Virus record (IMG/VR): IMGVR_UViG_3300050343_000185
Length of the DNA stretch: 64,000 nucleotides
Source: a virus
Direction: 5' to 3' (one strand)
The position numbers and the translations under genes were made by a program. Below, piece after piece: positions 10,507 to 44,562 of the stretch. Position 1 is the first letter of the stretch. Each line of letters opens with the position of its first letter. Under the pieces are notes generated by a model. That model had not been told where the DNA came from and ran no database searches. It saw nothing but the letters and a program-made list of their open reading frames with translations.

Positions 10507-10536
10507 CAAAAAAAGAAGGGCGTTAACCCTTCTTTT
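10507..10536 (-). terminator. intrinsic terminator
   Basis: GAAGGG-TTAACG-CCCTTC followed by T7, with flanking A/T tracts (possibly bidirectional). Confidence 0.75.
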
Positions 10537-10553
10537 ACAAGTTTACAAGTAAC

Positions 10554-10721
10554 TCACTTACTGTAGGTACGACCACGATAACAGAATGTGCCGTGGGGTT
10601 CCTTTAATTCGACACAACGTGTAGTATACTCAACACCACGATATGAGGTGTGATTAATCTGTGCGTCGTGAAGAGCAGATGCTTTGTTGATCTGCTTTCT
10701 GATGATGTTTAGTGTGTTCAT
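10554..10721 (-). CDS. 55-aa DUF4278-like small protein (not in ORF track)
   Basis: MNTLNIIRKQINKASALHDAQINHTSYRGVEY..FCYRGRTYSK: two YRG motifs; SD GGAG at 10733-10730. Confidence 0.75.
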   Translation of the reverse strand: MNTLNIIRKQINKASALHDAQINHTSYRGVEYTTRCVELKEPHGTFCYRGRTYSK

Positions 10722-10727
10722 TTGTCA

Positions 10728-10980
10728 GTCTCCTGAAGTTAGGGTTTTTAATCCCCGTTCCTTCAGTCGTGTGCGTCCCAGAAACACTCAGGGGTAGATT
10801 CCTTTACGGTCTCTATCAACTCTACCTTAAAAGCATTTGAGATATTCTCATTTGCTTTCATCTTAAGCATGATTGTATCAGCTTGTTGGCAGGTGAGTGA
10901 TGAATAGAATAATAGTTCTAACATGGGATGAACGGCTCCGTTCCGCGACTTACTTGCGTCCTCCTTGCGGGGGATGAACG
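10728..10980 (-). ncRNA. tandem Downstream-peptide / glutamine-II riboswitch-like RNA
   Basis: Unit 1: CGTTCA-TCC..GGA-CGCAAGTAAGTCGC-GGAACG (10980-10939). Unit 2: CGTTCA-TCCCA (10934-10924) ... TGGGA-CGCACACGACTGAA-GGAACG (10780-10756), with pseudoknot partner CTTCAG at the SD of a DUF4278-like gene. Confidence 0.65.
10763..10924 (-). CDS. 53-aa small protein nested in the riboswitch-like RNA (not in ORF track)
   Basis: Intact ORF MLELLFYSSLTCQQADTIMLKMKANENISNAFKVELIETVKESTPECFWDAHD*. Confidence 0.7.
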   Translation of the reverse strand: MLELLFYSSLTCQQADTIMLKMKANENISNAFKVELIETVKESTPECFWDAHD

Positions 10981-11017
10981 TATGGTAATTATACCATACT
11001 TTATTTATGATCGCAAG
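10981..11017 (-). promoter_or_regulatory. dual early/late promoter of the riboswitch-like locus
   Basis: TTGCGA-17 nt-TATAAT (extended TG) with CATAAATA inside the spacer; inverted repeat TATGGTA..TACCATA over the -10/TSS. Confidence 0.7.
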
Positions 11018-11287
11018 TCAAGTTCCAGATAGATAAAATGCATCTCCTCTCGCATGACAGACTCTCTTGACCTGTGCGTCATAGATAGGAACTGTTCCAG
11101 CACCAGTGATTAAATTCTTAGCAAAGTCAAATGCTTCTTTAAATCTACCAAATTTATACACATCGTCATAAGTTTTAGCAGACATAAGAACACCATCCTT
11201 CCTCCATGTCTTCATCGTATGCCAGACAGTAGGTTCAGATAATTTACGATAGAAAATACACCAGTTACCAGTTTGATTTGCACTCAT
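11018..11287 (-). CDS. conserved cyanophage hypothetical protein
   Basis: 89-aa ORF in an overlapping operon. Confidence 0.6.
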   Translation of the reverse strand: MSANQTGNWCIFYRKLSEPTVWHTMKTWRKDGVLMSAKTYDDVYKFGRFKEAFDFAKNLITGAGTVPIYDAQVKRVCHARGDAFYLSGT

Positions 11288-17410: not shown

Positions 17411-17545
17411 TGTATTAAAAAAAAAGTAAGATCATCAGGGAAATGATGGTTTTACTATTCCTGTATCACCCTTAGATACAGGTATGAAAGACGTGATTTA
17501 GACACCCTATAGGTCTTGGTTTAAGGGGTGTTACGAAACGTTAAG
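17411..17545 (-). ncRNA. PhotoRC-II-like structured psbA 5' leader
   Basis: AGACCTATAGGGTGTCT..CGTCTTTCATACCTGTATC-TAAGGGT-GATACAGG-AATAGTAAAACCATCA-TTTCCC-TGATG hairpins upstream of phage psbA; family recalled, not searched. Confidence 0.6.
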
Positions 17546-41153: not shown

Positions 41154-41225
41154 AGCGAATGATCGGACTTGAACCGACGACATCTAACTTGGAAGGATAG
41201 CGTTCTACCGCTGAACTACATTCGC
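41154..41225 (-). tRNA. trnG: tRNA-Gly (TCC)
   Basis: GCGAATG..TAGTTCAGCGGTAGA..anticodon loop CTTCCAA..GGTTCAAGTCC..CATTCGCT. Confidence 0.93.
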
Positions 41226-41248
41226 AAAAAAAGGGGAGGTCAATCCCC
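41226..41248 (-). terminator. intrinsic terminator between the manA-like RNA and tRNA-Gly
   Basis: GGGGA-TTGACC-TCCCC-T7. Confidence 0.75.
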
Positions 41249-41405
41249 TAAGGCACATGCACGCCACTTGTTTGTTTCAGTTGTAAACAAGAACCAACCA
41301 CACGGAAGGGGTTTTGGCACCACCACTTACTTTTTATCAGAAGTAAGAAACTGAGCGGCAACGTAATCACCCGCACCAGGGCTAGTTTAGAGTCTTACCG
41401 AGACT
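41249..41405 (-). ncRNA. manA-like structured RNA
   Basis: ORF-free region: AGTC-TCGGTAA-GACT, GCGG..CCGC, two related hairpins CTTACTT..AAGTAAG and CTTGTTT..AAACAAG, plus GGTGC/GCGTGCA and CCCTTCC elements. Family name from recall only. Confidence 0.55.
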
Positions 41406-41709
41406 AACTGAAGGTGATACTATCATCACTATTAGTATTGATACTAATGTTACCACCAAAATCAATAACATTATCAAAATTATCCAAATCTCCCCCAGGA
41501 CGAGGGAGATAATCAGACGACAGATTGAAATTGTAATTTGAATCATAAGCAAAATGAGTTAAGTCATTTACTTTTTTATTCAGATTACTGATTGCTTGAT
41601 ACTGAGTAAACAGTTCGGACAAACAATCTTCATCTCCCTCAGCAAGAGCGTTAATCAGTGCTTGACGGAGTGCTTCTTCAGCAGCTTGAACTTGTGATCT
41701 TACGCTCAT
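41404..41709 (-). CDS. hypothetical protein
   Basis: MSVRSQVQAAEEALRQALINALAEG.. 101-aa ORF. Confidence 0.6.
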   Translation of the reverse strand: MSVRSQVQAAEEALRQALINALAEGDEDCLSELFTQYQAISNLNKKVNDLTHFAYDSNYNFNLSSDYLPRPGGDLDNFDNVIDFGGNISINTNSDDSITFS

Positions 41710-41718
41710 AATAACCTC

Positions 41719-41961
41719 TTAGTTTGTTACAGTGTCACGGACATAGCAGGGCACACCATCTGGATCTAACCATTTGGTATACTCTACATCTTCTAGACAG
41801 GTGTCTAGTTGCATTTGGTTGTCAAGGAAATACATGTCAAAGTATCTCTTCTTCCACTCATGATACTTTTGAATACGGTAGTCAGGTCTACCGTTGATCT
41901 CCAGAAGACCGCACTGAACGTAGCGGTAAGGAAATCTCTCAAGAATGACAGTGGGTTTCAT
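41719..41961 (-). CDS. conserved cyanophage hypothetical protein
   Basis: MKPTVILERFPYRYVQCG.LEING.PDYRIQK..MYFLDNQMQLDTCLED.EYTKWLDP. Confidence 0.7.
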   Translation of the reverse strand: MKPTVILERFPYRYVQCGLLEINGRPDYRIQKYHEWKKRYFDMYFLDNQMQLDTCLEDVEYTKWLDPDGVPCYVRDTVTN

Positions 41962-43004
41962 AGGACGAAGGTGACGAGTGCTGCGTACCCAATAAGTATA
42001 GCACATAATCGGGTGAGGACAACGTAGTATTTACGAATTGGTGTGCCGAAATACTGTTGTCCGATCATGAGACACTTGTGAGCGGGTGAGATAAGGTATC
42101 CTGAATACTCAGTACAGAGGAACCACACCAAGTATTGAGGACCAAAGATTGCTACCAGAGCAGAGGTCATGCCAGCATACTTACCAGATGAACCCATAGC
42201 ATAGGCAGCAACCATTGCCACCAGAGAGGCAGGTATAAGCATCCCAGGCGTTGCTGCGTTGAGATACTCCATAACTGGTCCTTTCACCAATCCTACCACA
42301 CCACCAAGGGCAAGGACAAGTGTAGCGATGATGGCAAACTTACCATCCAACCACTTGCCCCACTTCCAATCCTTGAACACAATAGAATAGTAGATTGCCA
42401 TTCCAAGGAACCAAGGGAAGAAGAAGATTGCCCCACCTTTGCCTGTATTCAATAGAAGAATCACAGTAGCAATCAGTGGTGCCCATCCAGTAAGAGCACG
42501 ACGCCAGTTGAACTCACGAACATAATCTAGGTTGGGGACAACAGACGAAGCTGGAACCTTAGTAAAGATGTACCACCATGTGTATGTCAAGGTGATAATC
42601 AAAGGAACAATAGTATATCCTAGGAATGTTCCATAGGATACACCCATCACTGCCATAGGTAGAACAACTGTCTTCTCTAGTGGAGACCACCAGTAGTAAT
42701 GGTGGACTGATAGGTAATCAATTACACCAAAATCAGAACGGCGTTCTTGATCTCTTGGTGCAATGGCATCTAGGAGTGGTGCTGATAAAGCAACACGTCC
42801 TGGAATAGGTAGTATACCACCCAACAGTGAGGTGATAATAACAAGGACACGATTGTCCTTGATGTATTTCTTTGCTAAAGCATATACATCCTCAAGAGCA
42901 CTATAATCACGGATGAATCCACCCAAGATCATGATGCCAAAGATGTACCCCATGTAGAGTTCATTCTTAGCAATAGATTCTAATGTTTTAACTAGCATCG
43001 TCAT
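41958..43004 (-). CDS. polytopic membrane protein, ion-transporter (IT) superfamily-like
   Basis: About 9-10 hydrophobic segments; LGGILPIPGRVALSAP and YLISPAHKCL motifs resemble DUF401/IT-type re-entrant loops. Confidence 0.6.
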   Translation of the reverse strand: MTMLVKTLESIAKNELYMGYIFGIMILGGFIRDYSALEDVYALAKKYIKDNRVLVIITSLLGGILPIPGRVALSAPLLDAIAPRDQERRSDFGVIDYLSVHHYYWWSPLEKTVVLPMAVMGVSYGTFLGYTIVPLIITLTYTWWYIFTKVPASSVVPNLDYVREFNWRRALTGWAPLIATVILLLNTGKGGAIFFFPWFLGMAIYYSIVFKDWKWGKWLDGKFAIIATLVLALGGVVGLVKGPVMEYLNAATPGMLIPASLVAMVAAYAMGSSGKYAGMTSALVAIFGPQYLVWFLCTEYSGYLISPAHKCLMIGQQYFGTPIRKYYVVLTRLCAILIGYAALVTFVL

Positions 43005-43191
43005 GTGTTGTCATCATATTTTCCCAATCAGTATCAGTAACCTGATCTGTTAGTTCTTTGTATTCATCAGCAGGGACTGCCATAACAGCAGTTCCATCTG
43101 GTTTACGAACTATAAAGCTTTCGCCTGCTTCAATGCGATCCATGTAAGCATCGAAGTCTTTTTCAAATTCATCAAACGGAACTTCAACCAT
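42988..43191 (-). CDS. Phd/YefM antitoxin-like small protein
   Basis: MVEVPFDEFEKDFDAYMDRIEAGESFIVRKPDGTAVMAVP fits the Phd beta-alpha-beta-beta N-terminal pattern. Confidence 0.5.
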   Translation of the reverse strand: MVEVPFDEFEKDFDAYMDRIEAGESFIVRKPDGTAVMAVPADEYKELTDQVTDTDWENMMTTHDDAS

Positions 43192-43831
43192 TGATCTCCT
43201 TAAAATCTTTTTCAAAAATTGCCAAACCAGAATCGGTCAGCACATGGTTATACATTTTGTCGAATACAGCAGGTGGCAATGTAACTACACTAGCACCATA
43301 CATCAAGCAGCGAGAGACATGGTGGACATCTCTCAAACTGGCAGCAAGGATCTTGGTGCGAACACCATGAGCACAGTACAGACCAGAGATAGCACGAACA
43401 AGTTCAACACCACTGAGTGAATTATCATTCATACGACCCACGAAAGGTGAGATGTATGTGGCACCTGCCTTCGCTGCCATCACTGCCTGAGCGGCGCTGA
43501 AGCATAGCGTAACGTTAGTCTCTACACCTTGAGCAGTGAGTTCTTTACATGCCTTCAAACCCTCTACAGTGAGGGGCAGTTTGATCGTAACATTCTCACC
43601 AATATCACGATACTTAATAGCATTGGTAAGCATCTCAAAGCAAGACTCACCTTCTACTTCAGCAGAAATGCTTTCAAAGGCAAAGTTATTTGCTAGAGTT
43701 TTAATGAACTCCACATAGTCCACACCAGACTTACGAACTAGTGTAGGATTTGTAGTGATACCATCAACTAGACCAGTCGTATAGCGTTCAGCAATTGCTT
43801 CGTAGTCAGCAGTGTCTAGAAAAATTTTCAT
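43184..43831 (-). CDS. talC: transaldolase (TalC type)
   Basis: MKIFLDTA..GITTNPTL..IKLPLT..TNVTLCFS..AAKAGATYISPFVGR..ILAASLR. Confidence 0.96.
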   Translation of the reverse strand: MKIFLDTADYEAIAERYTTGLVDGITTNPTLVRKSGVDYVEFIKTLANNFAFESISAEVEGESCFEMLTNAIKYRDIGENVTIKLPLTVEGLKACKELTAQGVETNVTLCFSAAQAVMAAKAGATYISPFVGRMNDNSLSGVELVRAISGLYCAHGVRTKILAASLRDVHHVSRCLMYGASVVTLPPAVFDKMYNHVLTDSGLAIFEKDFKEING

Positions 43832-43845
43832 ATTCAGTAGGTTGA

Positions 43846-44052
43846 TTACACTCCGATGCGTTGCTGCATCGAGATACATTGTTCTTTCATATTATACTGG
43901 AGTTTATAGTTCTTTGTCAAGACATAATACCCATTAATGGTCACTCCATCATCTGTCCACCCGTAGGCGATTACTTTTTCACATGCTCCATCGATAGTAA
44001 AGCATTTGTTACTATGTAAGTATTCGTGATAACGAGCGTCTAGATTAATCAT
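43846..44052 (-). CDS. conserved cyanophage hypothetical protein
   Basis: MINLDARYHEYLH..KVIAYGWTDDG..GYYVLT. Confidence 0.6.
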   Translation of the reverse strand: MINLDARYHEYLHSNKCFTIDGACEKVIAYGWTDDGVTINGYYVLTKNYKLQYNMKEQCISMQQRIGV

Positions 44053-44300
44053 TAGCGTTCCTCAAAAGTGATGCGGCGGACCTTGCGTTGGCGTCGTTCC
44101 TCTTGGTATTTTAGGTCATCAGGTGTCAGGATACCATGATATTTGATCTTTTTGTCATGTTTCGTTAGAACTACTTGACCCAAGTCAATTGCTCCCACGG
44201 TATCGTCCACAACCTTCATCTGATTCGGACACCCACAGAACTGAACCTTGCTATTGCTTGTCAGTTCTTTGTTGCATAATTTACATCTTGCAGATAACAT
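44052..44300 (-). CDS. small Zn-ribbon-like protein
   Basis: CKLC..CGCPN Cys pairs. Confidence 0.6.
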   Translation of the reverse strand: MLSARCKLCNKELTSNSKVQFCGCPNQMKVVDDTVGAIDLGQVVLTKHDKKIKYHGILTPDDLKYQEERRQRKVRRITFEER

Positions 44301-44328
44301 TAGTAAGCATTTAACCTCATATGAGTAA

Positions 44329-44400
44329 TGCTCGAAGAGGGGATCGAACCCCCGACAATCTCCGTGTAAAGGAGGTGCTCTACCTCTGAGCTATTCGAGC
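44329..44400 (-). tRNA. trnV: tRNA-Val (TAC)
   Basis: GCTCGAA..TAGCTCAGAGGTAGAGC..CTCC-TTTACAC-GGAG..GGTTCGATCCC..TTCGAGCA. Confidence 0.93.
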
Positions 44401-44403
44401 GAG

Positions 44404-44485
44404 TGTCGGTAAGAGGACTTGAACCTCCACGTCATAAGACACCAGAACCTAAACCTGGCGCGTCTACCAATTCCGCCATACCGAC
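44404..44485 (-). tRNA. trnL: tRNA-Leu (TAG)
   Basis: GTCGGTA..GGCGGAATTGGTAGACGC..CCAGG-TTTAGGT-TCTGG, long variable arm, GGTTCAAGTCC..TACCGACA. Confidence 0.93.

Positions 44486-44562
<77 letters not shown>

Follow-up and report, generated by a model that had tools for sequence, protein, structure and literature searches.

A glutamine riboswitch-like leader RNA of nested topology folded around a small gene in a T4-like cyanophage

How can a ligand-sensing leader RNA be put together when a whole gene lies between the two strands of one of its hairpins, and does such a leader hold one sensor or two? The question is raised by the IMG/VR virus record IMGVR_UViG_3300050343_000185, of which a stretch of 64,000 nucleotides (nt), referred to here as the window, was analysed; it belongs to a T4-like cyanophage whose nearest record is Synechococcus phage ACG-2014e (92% identity by BLAST). 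On its minus strand, a leader with two glutamine riboswitch-like units encloses one open reading frame (ORF-A) and precedes another, ORF-B. A preliminary description of the sequence had proposed two tandem aptamers of the Downstream-peptide (glutamine-II) type, the second carrying ORF-A in its P2 loop. We instead read the leader, with a probability of about 0.6, as a composite glutamine riboswitch of nested topology in the 5' part of a phage transcription unit. The helices and the nested topology, taken together, are considerably more certain than this overall reading. The elements of the leader and its two genes are as follows, with residue numbers such as C17 being those of the published contact map discussed below.

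10976-10980, minus strand: strand a (CGUUC), 5' strand of the outer P1, pairing with strand b' (10760-10756)
10959-10974, minus strand: H1, the outer P2 hairpin, UCCCCCGCAAGGAGGA; three of its pairs covary (UA/AU/GC, CG/UA and CG/GC/UA/AU)
10951-10958, minus strand: linking strand CGC-1 and junction J23, CGCAAGUA, in agreement with the type-1 consensus CGGAAGUA; the CGC at 10958-10956 is equivalent to C17-G18-C19
10946-10950, minus strand: 5' strand of P3 (AGUCG), the P3 of the Rfam model, with its partner at 10769-10765, 181 nt away
10938-10943, minus strand: strand a' (GAACGG), 5' strand of the inner P1', pairing with strand b
10936-10939, minus strand: GGAG, Shine-Dalgarno (SD) sequence of ORF-A, divided between the a'/b stem and its 4-nt loop, 11 nt ahead of the AUG
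10930-10934, minus strand: strand b (CGUUC), 3' strand of the inner P1', covarying with a'
10924-10928, minus strand: 5' strand of H2, the inner P2' (UCCCA); its last base is the A of the ORF-A AUG
10763-10924, minus strand: ORF-A, 53 codons and a TGA (phrog_504, T4-GC_430), in the loop of H2 and thus inside P3 and P1
10776-10780, minus strand: 3' strand of H2 (UGGGA), a Trp codon plus GA
10770-10775, minus strand: linking strand CGC-2 and junction of the inner core (CGCACA), assigned from sequence and the published contact map
10765-10769, minus strand: 3' strand of P3 (CGACU); its final U is the first base of the ORF-A UGA stop
10761-10766, minus strand: CUGAAG, 5' strand of the sequestor, overlapping P3 (CU), the UGA stop and the GAAG of J31/E-loop
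10755-10760, minus strand: strand b' (GAACGG), 3' strand of the outer P1, carrying the outer-core equivalents of C39, G40 and G41
10741-10756, minus strand: small hairpin GGGG-AUUAAAAA-CCCU in the sequestor loop, overlapping b' by 1-2 nt; variable but paired in relatives
10730-10738, minus strand: 3' strand of the sequestor (CUUCAG, 10738-10733), overlapping the AGGAG SD of ORF-B (10734-10730)
10554-10721, minus strand: ORF-B, 55 amino acids (phrog_545, T4-GC_937), DUF4278/IF17-like, with two YRG (YRGxxY) motifs

Every coordinate in the preliminary description is correct. Its unit 1, CGTTCA-TCC..GGA-CGCAAGTAAGTCGC-GGAACG, is present at 10980-10939, while unit 2 opens with CGTTCA-TCCCA (10934-10924) and is completed by TGGGA-CGCACACGACTGAA-GGAACG (10780-10756). 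ORF-A was also placed correctly, with its ATG on the last base of TCCCA, its W-D-A-H-D spelled by TGGGACGCACACGAC, and its TGA within CTGAAG; likewise, CTTCAG (10738-10733) adjoins GGAG, and AGTCG (10950-10946) is complementary to CGACT (10769-10765). What has to be decided is which of these strands pair with one another, since the consensus strands a, a', b and b' can pair either in tandem (a/a' and b/b') or nested (a/b' and a'/b).

We collected about 170 related cyanophage loci and made the formal counts on a 98-sequence alignment of distinct sequences. Under the nested model, 98.7% of the cells are paired, with the one variable pair of each helix being CG in 87 and UA in 9 sequences for a/b' (a5/b'1), and GC in 82 and CG in 16, with none unpaired, for a'/b (a'1/b5). 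The nested covariation score of 0.136, versus 0.047 in shuffles (0/500), is far above that of every slid register. Tandem pairing fails at these two positions in 15 and 17 of the 98 sequences, against 1 and 0 for nested pairing, and the b/b' pairing is mismatched in 17/98 without any compensatory change. A scan of b' variants in which the partner was left free found a=CGUUU with b'=AAACG in 11/11 loci that have a in reach, and a'=CAACG is accompanied by b=CGUUG in 8/8 loci; where all four occur together (a=CGUUU, a'=CAACG, b=CGUUG, b'=AAACG), nested pairing is the sole option. Because the variable CGUUC/GAACG pair covaries outer with outer and inner with inner, the two units are not tandem aptamers.

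Two tandem glutamine-II-type aptamers, with the remaining pairings acting as competitors, are thus a very improbable account of the locus. The consensus strands do pair either way, unit 1 gives weak matches to both Rfam glutamine models, the contiguous unit 2 of one relative passes the glutamine-II cutoff (see below), and the tandem fold, with 4/5 pairs, could persist as a transient or ligand-free alternative. Against it, besides the mismatches at its sole variable pair, stand the covariation of P3, which the tandem model treats as a competitor, and the fact that each unit alone holds half of the type-1 E-loop consensus, with the nested register scoring about 20 bits higher. The three pairings that had been listed as competing are all real, selected helices, and compensatory changes were found in each of TCCCA/TGGGA, AGTCG/CGACT and CTGAAG/CTTCAG; AGUCG/CGACU is P3 and GAACG/CGUUC is the inner P1', neither of them a competitor, and CUGAAG/CUUCAG is the only true alternative pairing of the three.

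The covariation extends across the gene. As the first search patterns fixed both strands of P3, invariance there carries no weight, and variants of the P3 5' strand were scanned with the 3' strand left free: AAUCG occurs with CGAUU in 14/14 loci and AUUCG with CGAAU in 3/3, while scans for AGUDG and AGVCG returned no loci, which is no argument against the pairing. These changes recode the last sense codon of ORF-A (GAC to GAT or GAA), and they are matched by a strand about 190-220 nt upstream. In H2, which closes around ORF-A, the fourth pair is CG in 72, UA in 18, UG in 4 and GC in 1, and further stem types occur (UCCUC/GAGGA, UCCCU/AGGGA, UCUAU/AUAGA). A whole, genuine gene therefore does lie in an aptamer hairpin loop with the stem pairing across about 150 nt, as had been suspected. 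Where H1 is likewise split by a gene, its 5' strand tracks the stop codon, with UCUUA/UAAGA in 6 (UAA), UCUCA/UGAGA in 6 (UGA) and UCCUA/UAGGA in 2 (UAG). The sequestor, CURAAG/CUUYAG in consensus, covaries as well: 98.6% of its cells are paired, the third pair being GC in 34, AU in 33 and GU in 29, with a UAA stop joined to a CUUUAG partner in 42/42 loci and UGA to C or U. With compensatory changes in H2, P3 and P1, which all span the insertion, and a last sense codon matched by the distant P3 strand, it is scarcely credible that the insertion of ORF-A broke an aptamer whose halves were then kept as coding sequence and ribosome-binding site (RBS). Such decay would agree with the lack of any Rfam hit at threshold and with a 3' half that doubles as codons (WDAHD); the 5' half-sites, which lie outside any ORF, are still conserved in more than 100 distinct loci.

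To which class of glutamine aptamer does this fold belong? At gathering score, Rfam found no glutamine family in the whole window, and a permissive Rfam scan aligned unit 1 (the first 48 nt) only, at 20.8 bits for Glutamine (cutoff 35) and 20.4 bits for Glutamine-II (cutoff 33). Among the 129 loci that were parsed, an ORF interrupts the second hairpin in 114, and in 11 this hairpin is contiguous with a short loop, so that an ORF-free form with the same cores exists. With RF01739 (cutoff 35), these ORF-free relatives score 38.4-43.6 bits when aligned in the nested register, about 20 bits above the single-unit scores, so the Rfam check that had been suggested gives no match on the region itself at gathering score but a clear one on relatives with the same cores. 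RF01739 aligns them with a paired to b', H1 as P2, AGU/ACU as P3, and everything between as a P3 insert. The P3 flanks CGCAAGUA and GAAGGAACG align to the AAGUA/GAAG E-loop consensus; the 3' junction GAAGGAACG fits the type-1 consensus in the nested register, and neither unit alone supplies this match. The window falls below the RF01739 cutoff because its P3 holds 170 nt of content. That gathering score is an operational criterion rather than a structural one, and the structural features of the family are all found here (a P1 closing the junction, a P2 hairpin after CGUUCA followed by CGC, and a P3 with both flanks), with the difference that P3 is uncapped by a loop, unlike in the RF01739 family. 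For RF01704 (cutoff 33 bits), one ORF-free relative, L041, reaches 34 bits, by the contiguous unit 2 alone; the pseudoknot of that family, between the 5' CGUUC and GAACG in its own 3' hairpin loop, is not borne out, as b covaries with a' instead. The fold accordingly fits the type-1 (glnA, RF01739) model and not the Downstream-peptide class to which it had first been assigned.

In known aptamers, glutamine is contacted by C1, G40, the O2' of G18 and C39, with a G18>G2:C39 triple and a long-range C19:G41 pair (Huang et al., 2019, PMC6698751; the type-1 structure of Ren et al., 2015 as summarised there). On a mapping taken from PMC6698751, all contact nucleotides are kept in the outer core, at 10980 (C1), 10979 (G2), 10957/10956 (G18/C19) and 10757-10755 (C39, G40, G41), and likewise in the inner core, at 10934, 10933, 10774/10773 and 10940-10938. 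Among the pairs of the pseudoknot helix in known aptamers, only C5:G36 and U4:A37 are conserved at 97% or less (Huang et al., PMC6698751), and the pair that varies here is the C5:G36 equivalent.

Read in this way, the outer core has the predicted architecture of a type-1 (glnA-like) three-way junction, made of P1 (a/b'), P2 (H1) and P3 (AGUCG/CGACU) with the junctions CGCAAGUA and GAAG. Its P3, by the same reading, opens into a second three-way junction, the inner core, composed of a local P1' (GAACG-GAGC-CGUUC) and the long-range H2, followed by CGC-2. The order of elements in this inner junction, namely CGUUC (b), A, H2, CGCAxA, P3, CG and GAACGG (a'), is the aptamer order in circular permutation, with P1' capped by a 3-4-nt loop and P3 common to both junctions.

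ORF-A itself is a real protein-coding gene under purifying selection. Its frame is open and ends at the canonical stop in 123/123 loci (other frames in 10 at most), and among 113 distinct proteins the entropy by codon position is 0.88/0.42/1.19; the zero entropy of the last four codons is a product of the search pattern, and no evidence is drawn from it. Over codons 1-48, which no search pattern fixed, the ratio of nonsynonymous to synonymous substitution rates (dN/dS) is 0.28. The protein matches phrog_504 (E 3e-28), Cys12 and Cys47 are invariant in its homologues, and an AlphaFold2 model built on 53 homologues has three helices at a predicted local distance difference test (pLDDT) value of 82; searches found no Pfam family for it and no PDB fold match at E of 0.001 or below. 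In three loci (L146, L147 and L148), the stop is lost (UGA/UAA to CAA/CGA, a change that also makes a P3 A.C mismatch), and the frame is extended by five codons through the E-loop and GAACGG (...DQRNGN, ...DRRNGD).

In some relatives the other hairpin holds a gene too. In 27 of the 129 parsed loci, H1 is interrupted by a distinct ORF, about 66 codons long (ORF-C; 65-67 codons, phrog_6471), as in Synechococcus phage Sf-CH1b (PV340850.1, L002:726-926), where it is unannotated and H1 reads CGUUCA-UCUUA-UG ... GUG-UAA-GA-CGCAAG, plus about 26 IMG/VR loci. The 3' stem strand opens with the three bases of the ORF-C stop codon; exceptions are three loci in which the frame continues to the conserved UAA of CGCAAGUAAGUCG. 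A longer, 64-codon ORF-A is a homologue of the short one by hhalign (93%, E 4e-7) and aligns Cys-to-Cys with ORF-C (73%, E 3e-5), the short form reaching only 18% against ORF-C directly. The genes of the two hairpins are therefore probably paralogues.

Are these genes merely passengers, tolerated in terminal loops and gaining a promoter without any regulatory role? Short-loop, ORF-free versions do exist and pass Rfam, and all three terminal loops take insertions: H2 takes ORF-A, H1 takes ORF-C or, in other loci, a 30-50-nt non-coding extension, and the a'/b loop accommodates additional sequence in L090. The embedded ORFs, as probable paralogues, could also move by recombination through the conserved aptamer flanks. 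The placement of ORF-A argues otherwise. Its AUG lies exactly 4 nt past CGUUCA in 125/133 loci, and it runs through the conserved core to a stop inside P3/E-loop in 123/133, even though an earlier end is possible and found in 4 loci. The linker after a' begins with AG, which gives GGAG, in 96 of 112 distinct ORF-containing loci and in 0/9 ORF-free ones (Fisher 1.8e-7, a value that overstates independence as the loci are related), this GGAG being composed of two loop bases and the inner-core equivalents of G40 and G41. For a neutral passenger, it would be easier to have a spaced RBS and a stop of its own within a 150-nt loop, and, selected or not, each initiation and termination on ORF-A would unfold the sensor. 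We thus regard permissive-loop hitch-hiking as rather unlikely, if deserving of some weight. As a separate observation, the insertion in L090 (279-645) is about 60 nt long and sits in the loop of the inner GAACG/CGUUC hairpin, making this a third insertion-tolerant terminal loop.

How, then, might such a leader act on ORF-B? The sequestor and the aptamer fold exclude each other because the 5' strand of the sequestor uses the CU of P3 and the GAAG of the E-loop; its 3' strand overlaps and masks part of the ORF-B AGGAG. In energy, the designated helices of the two folds differ little (-24.5 and -25.4 kcal/mol, with -11.0 kcal/mol for the sequestor hairpin alone), and when folding is left unconstrained the energy minimum already includes a'/b, H2 and the sequestor. 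In the absence of glutamine, CUGAAG would pair with CUUCAG and hide part of the ORF-B SD; glutamine would stabilise P1 and P3, which need CU and GAAG, so that the sequestor would open and ORF-B be translated. By analogy with known systems, this suggests an ON switch in which glutamine frees the ribosome site of ORF-B.

Ribosomes that start or end on ORF-A would have to melt P1', H2, P3 and P1, making ORF-A translation and sensor folding mutually exclusive at the moments of initiation and termination, and in the closed fold ORF-A would probably be repressed. Because the GGAG is built of the G40/G41 equivalents, a 30S subunit on ORF-A is predicted to be incompatible with a closed inner core; and because a ribosome at the stop would cover CGC-2, P3, the E-loop and b', termination is expected to unfold the outer core together with the sequestor. 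Such conflicts are geometric consequences of the sequence, and their use in regulation is what we infer from it. The proposal of the preliminary description, in which translation of the nested ORF would reshape the sensor and thereby control the peptide, is plausible. The regulatory logic of the riboswitch as a whole we hold tentatively, at slightly less than even odds.

A more elaborate view, which we consider unlikely, is that of a translation-gated device with two sites, in which one ligand regulates two genes in opposite directions and the module spreads between hairpins. Glutamine in the inner core would lock P1' and H2 over the SD and AUG of ORF-A, turning it OFF, while glutamine in the outer core would draw CU-GAAG from the sequestor and turn the IF17-like gene ON; ribosomes on ORF-A would reset the sensor, and a module of half-aptamer, gene and half-aptamer would move between hairpins by recombination via its conserved flanks.

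Several points weigh against a composite glutamine riboswitch, and they keep our estimate from being higher. The window scores below both Rfam gathering scores. The loci were gathered by exact patterns in the conserved cores, so that invariance inside these patterns is uninformative, and many loci are related, so that the cell counts overstate the number of independent events. The outermost P3 pair is an uncompensated A.C in L146, L147 and L148, and about 10 split H1 stems retain just three UCC/GGA pairs. The inner junction is without an E-loop, having only CG where type 1 has GAAG, and may be a structural extension of P3 instead of a second sensor. Glutamine binding by either core, how many sites there are and which way regulation runs are predictions from sequence, and terminating ribosomes that free the ORF-B SD could override glutamine control, in which case a simple ON logic would be incomplete. 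Lastly, ORF-B scores 20.8 bits (E 5e-4) against DUF4278 (PF14105), below the Pfam cutoff of 25.3; in 6/6 ORF-B relatives DUF4278 scores 18.1-21.6 bits, being the best match for every protein tested and always sub-threshold. With these reservations, the claim that a relative of the glutamine riboswitches stands ahead of a DUF4278-like YRG peptide is supported.

Around the leader, the order on the minus strand is promoter, leader RNA, ORF-A, ORF-B and terminator, a self-contained phage transcription unit that occurs as a single copy in the 64-kb window. Its two boundaries are as follows.

10988-11016, minus strand: sigma-70-type extended -10 promoter, with TTGCGA (11016-11011), a 17-nt spacing and TG-n-TATAAT (10993-10988); 10/12 matches, TG present
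10508-10532, minus strand: intrinsic terminator, GAAGGG-UUAACG-CCCUUC followed by U7, read in the sequence and aligned as a terminator hairpin in the permissive Rfam scan

The start site is predicted at about 10983-10981, 1-3 nt ahead of the first CGUUC. The hairpin at 10508-10532 was not listed by a simple terminator scan. Contigs from the metatranscriptomes of four RNA studies span 10509-11009, and one of 184 nt is identical to the window over 10751-10934; these contigs are mixed relatives with possible DNA carry-over and carry no transcript ends, and the uncovered 11020-11174 is no evidence of a start site. No NtcA box (GTA-N8-TAC) is present within 120 nt upstream of the cassette. In the whole window, the GTA-N8-TAC core of that box occurs in 31 copies versus 14.5 expected, a number reached by 0/100 shuffles.

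Some further features of the cassette and its surroundings were recorded. The -10 hexamer is centred in a perfect 8-bp inverted repeat (10999-10980, minus strand: GUAUGGUA-UAAU-UACCAUAC). Among relatives, a stem of at least 6 bp around the -10 is kept in 95/109 loci versus 41/109 after shuffling, and its arms covary (GGTCTATAATAGACC, TGGTATAATTACCA, GGTGTTATAATAACACC); the repeat could be an operator or a hairpin of read-through RNA. In many relatives (L019, L043, L076, L101, L129-L145 and others), an additional conserved hairpin, AAAACGGAUCC-stem-GAGAAGGUUAAUUU, lies between GAACGG and the 3' strand of the sequestor, stretching the sequestor loop to about 60 nt. In phage S-BM3 (OQ319121.1, L005:829-1050), annotation places the start of the ORF-B homologue within the end of ORF-A, and the coding sequence crosses the 3' half of the riboswitch; the start common to all relatives is the ATG at 886. 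Elsewhere on the minus strand of the window are a PhotoRC-II RNA (17447-17543, 80 bits), a wcaG RNA (41312-41408, 50 bits) and four tRNA genes (within 41154-44562), which are usual cyanomyovirus features.

How widespread is the element? BLAST matched the region in 405 phage records, and at least 120 IMG/VR contigs contain the 3' core as an exact pattern, a recurrence well beyond what chance would give. The same element order is found in eight records from at least 6 genera, around two very different ORF-A sequences and in differing neighbourhoods. When 185,579 species genomes were scanned for the alpha core, 6 matches were obtained (L167-L172), all of which look like phage DNA: two are on contigs of 188-194 kb, and four are in non-cyanobacterial metagenome-assembled genomes (MAGs). 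Their labels include Nonlabens xiamenensis (the 188-kb contig), Verrucomicrobiales, Euryarchaeota TMED129 and a Synechococcus MAG (the 194-kb contig), and the exact core copies in these assemblies most likely come from cyanophage contigs that were binned, or assembled together, with other organisms.

Among known systems, the glutamine-I riboswitch (RF01739) is the closest. It shares with the element described here the CGUUC/GAACG P1, a hairpin followed by a CGC strand, a P3 flanked by AAGUA and GAAG, and all ligand-contact nucleotides. The leader of Synechocystis gifB, which encodes IF17, is a glutamine-I riboswitch that works as an ON switch and links the class to DUF4278/IF17 (Klahn et al., 2018, PMC6212724); the cyanophage element too leads a DUF4278/IF17-like gene, and its RBS-masking platform is consistent with an ON switch. 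Unlike in glutamine-I, its P3 opens into a second, circularly permuted aptamer-like junction, the strands of its P1 and P3 lie about 220 and 181 nt apart, it is phage-encoded, and it has a conserved gene in one hairpin loop and, in relatives, in a second loop too.

Glutamine-II (RF01704), which occurs in marine picocyanobacteria and has the same binding pocket as type 1 (PMC6698751), also has the order CGUUCA-hairpin-CGCA..CGA, then a stem flanking GGAACGG, before a short DUF4278 peptide gene. Its crystal form is a domain-swapped dimer with hybrid pseudoknot helices (PMC6698751), an arrangement similar to the exchange of strands observed here in a single RNA. It differs in that its defining pseudoknot is contradicted by the covariation, and in that the flanking stem, part of the bound fold in glutamine-II, competes here (as CURAAG/CUUYAG) with P3. 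The tandem system of PMC2864571 (2010) likewise combines two sensor-like cores for one ligand in one leader; in the cyanophage element the cores are nested around a common helix, and each contains strands of both units. ORF-free versions of the cyanophage element have probably been counted as tandem glnA RNAs in published surveys.

A translated ORF within a riboswitch aptamer does have a precedent. uMetE2, of about 16 codons, is translated inside the metE B12 aptamer of M. tuberculosis, and MetE increases over 10-fold when its start codon is mutated (Kipkorir et al., 2024, PMC11260477). According to its authors, ribosome binding inside the aptamer affects folding, and an upstream ORF (uORF) in the ppe2 leader acts by termination-reinitiation, which is a possible analogue of the coupling of ORF-A to ORF-B (PMC11260477). 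uMetE2 differs in overwriting structured sequence of the aptamer itself, in being weakly translated and in not having been shown to be conserved, whereas the genes described here have 50-67 codons, are under purifying selection, form PHROG families of their own, and sit in terminal loops with a stem pairing across them. The preliminary description knew of no earlier gene nested in an aptamer; for short translated uORFs this does not hold, given the metE case (PMC11260477), and for a whole gene we found none. In the literature searched, whose coverage did not extend to Ames and Breaker (2011), there is no description of a nested double core or of genes in its hairpin loops. Cyanophage glutamine riboswitches are known as Rfam hits (PMC9964418), and a survey that counted only two glutamine aptamers in cyanophage genomes stated that phages use riboswitches rarely (PMC5473149).

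Against those two, hundreds of cyanomyovirus records and contigs carry the element; Rfam misses it because the paired strands lie 150-220 nt apart around a gene. The usual view of riboswitch aptamers is of compact non-coding domains, and searches are built on contiguity, while this sensor folds around a working gene. Its nested, strand-exchanged double core is a new way of joining two sensor units. As the start, SD and stop of ORF-A all lie in functional helices, the locus is a direct case of ligand sensing versus translation, and on this one RNA the sensing of nitrogen is probably in competition with translation. For the biology of these cyanophages, the element points to manipulation of host nitrogen assimilation by the phage via an IF17-like peptide.

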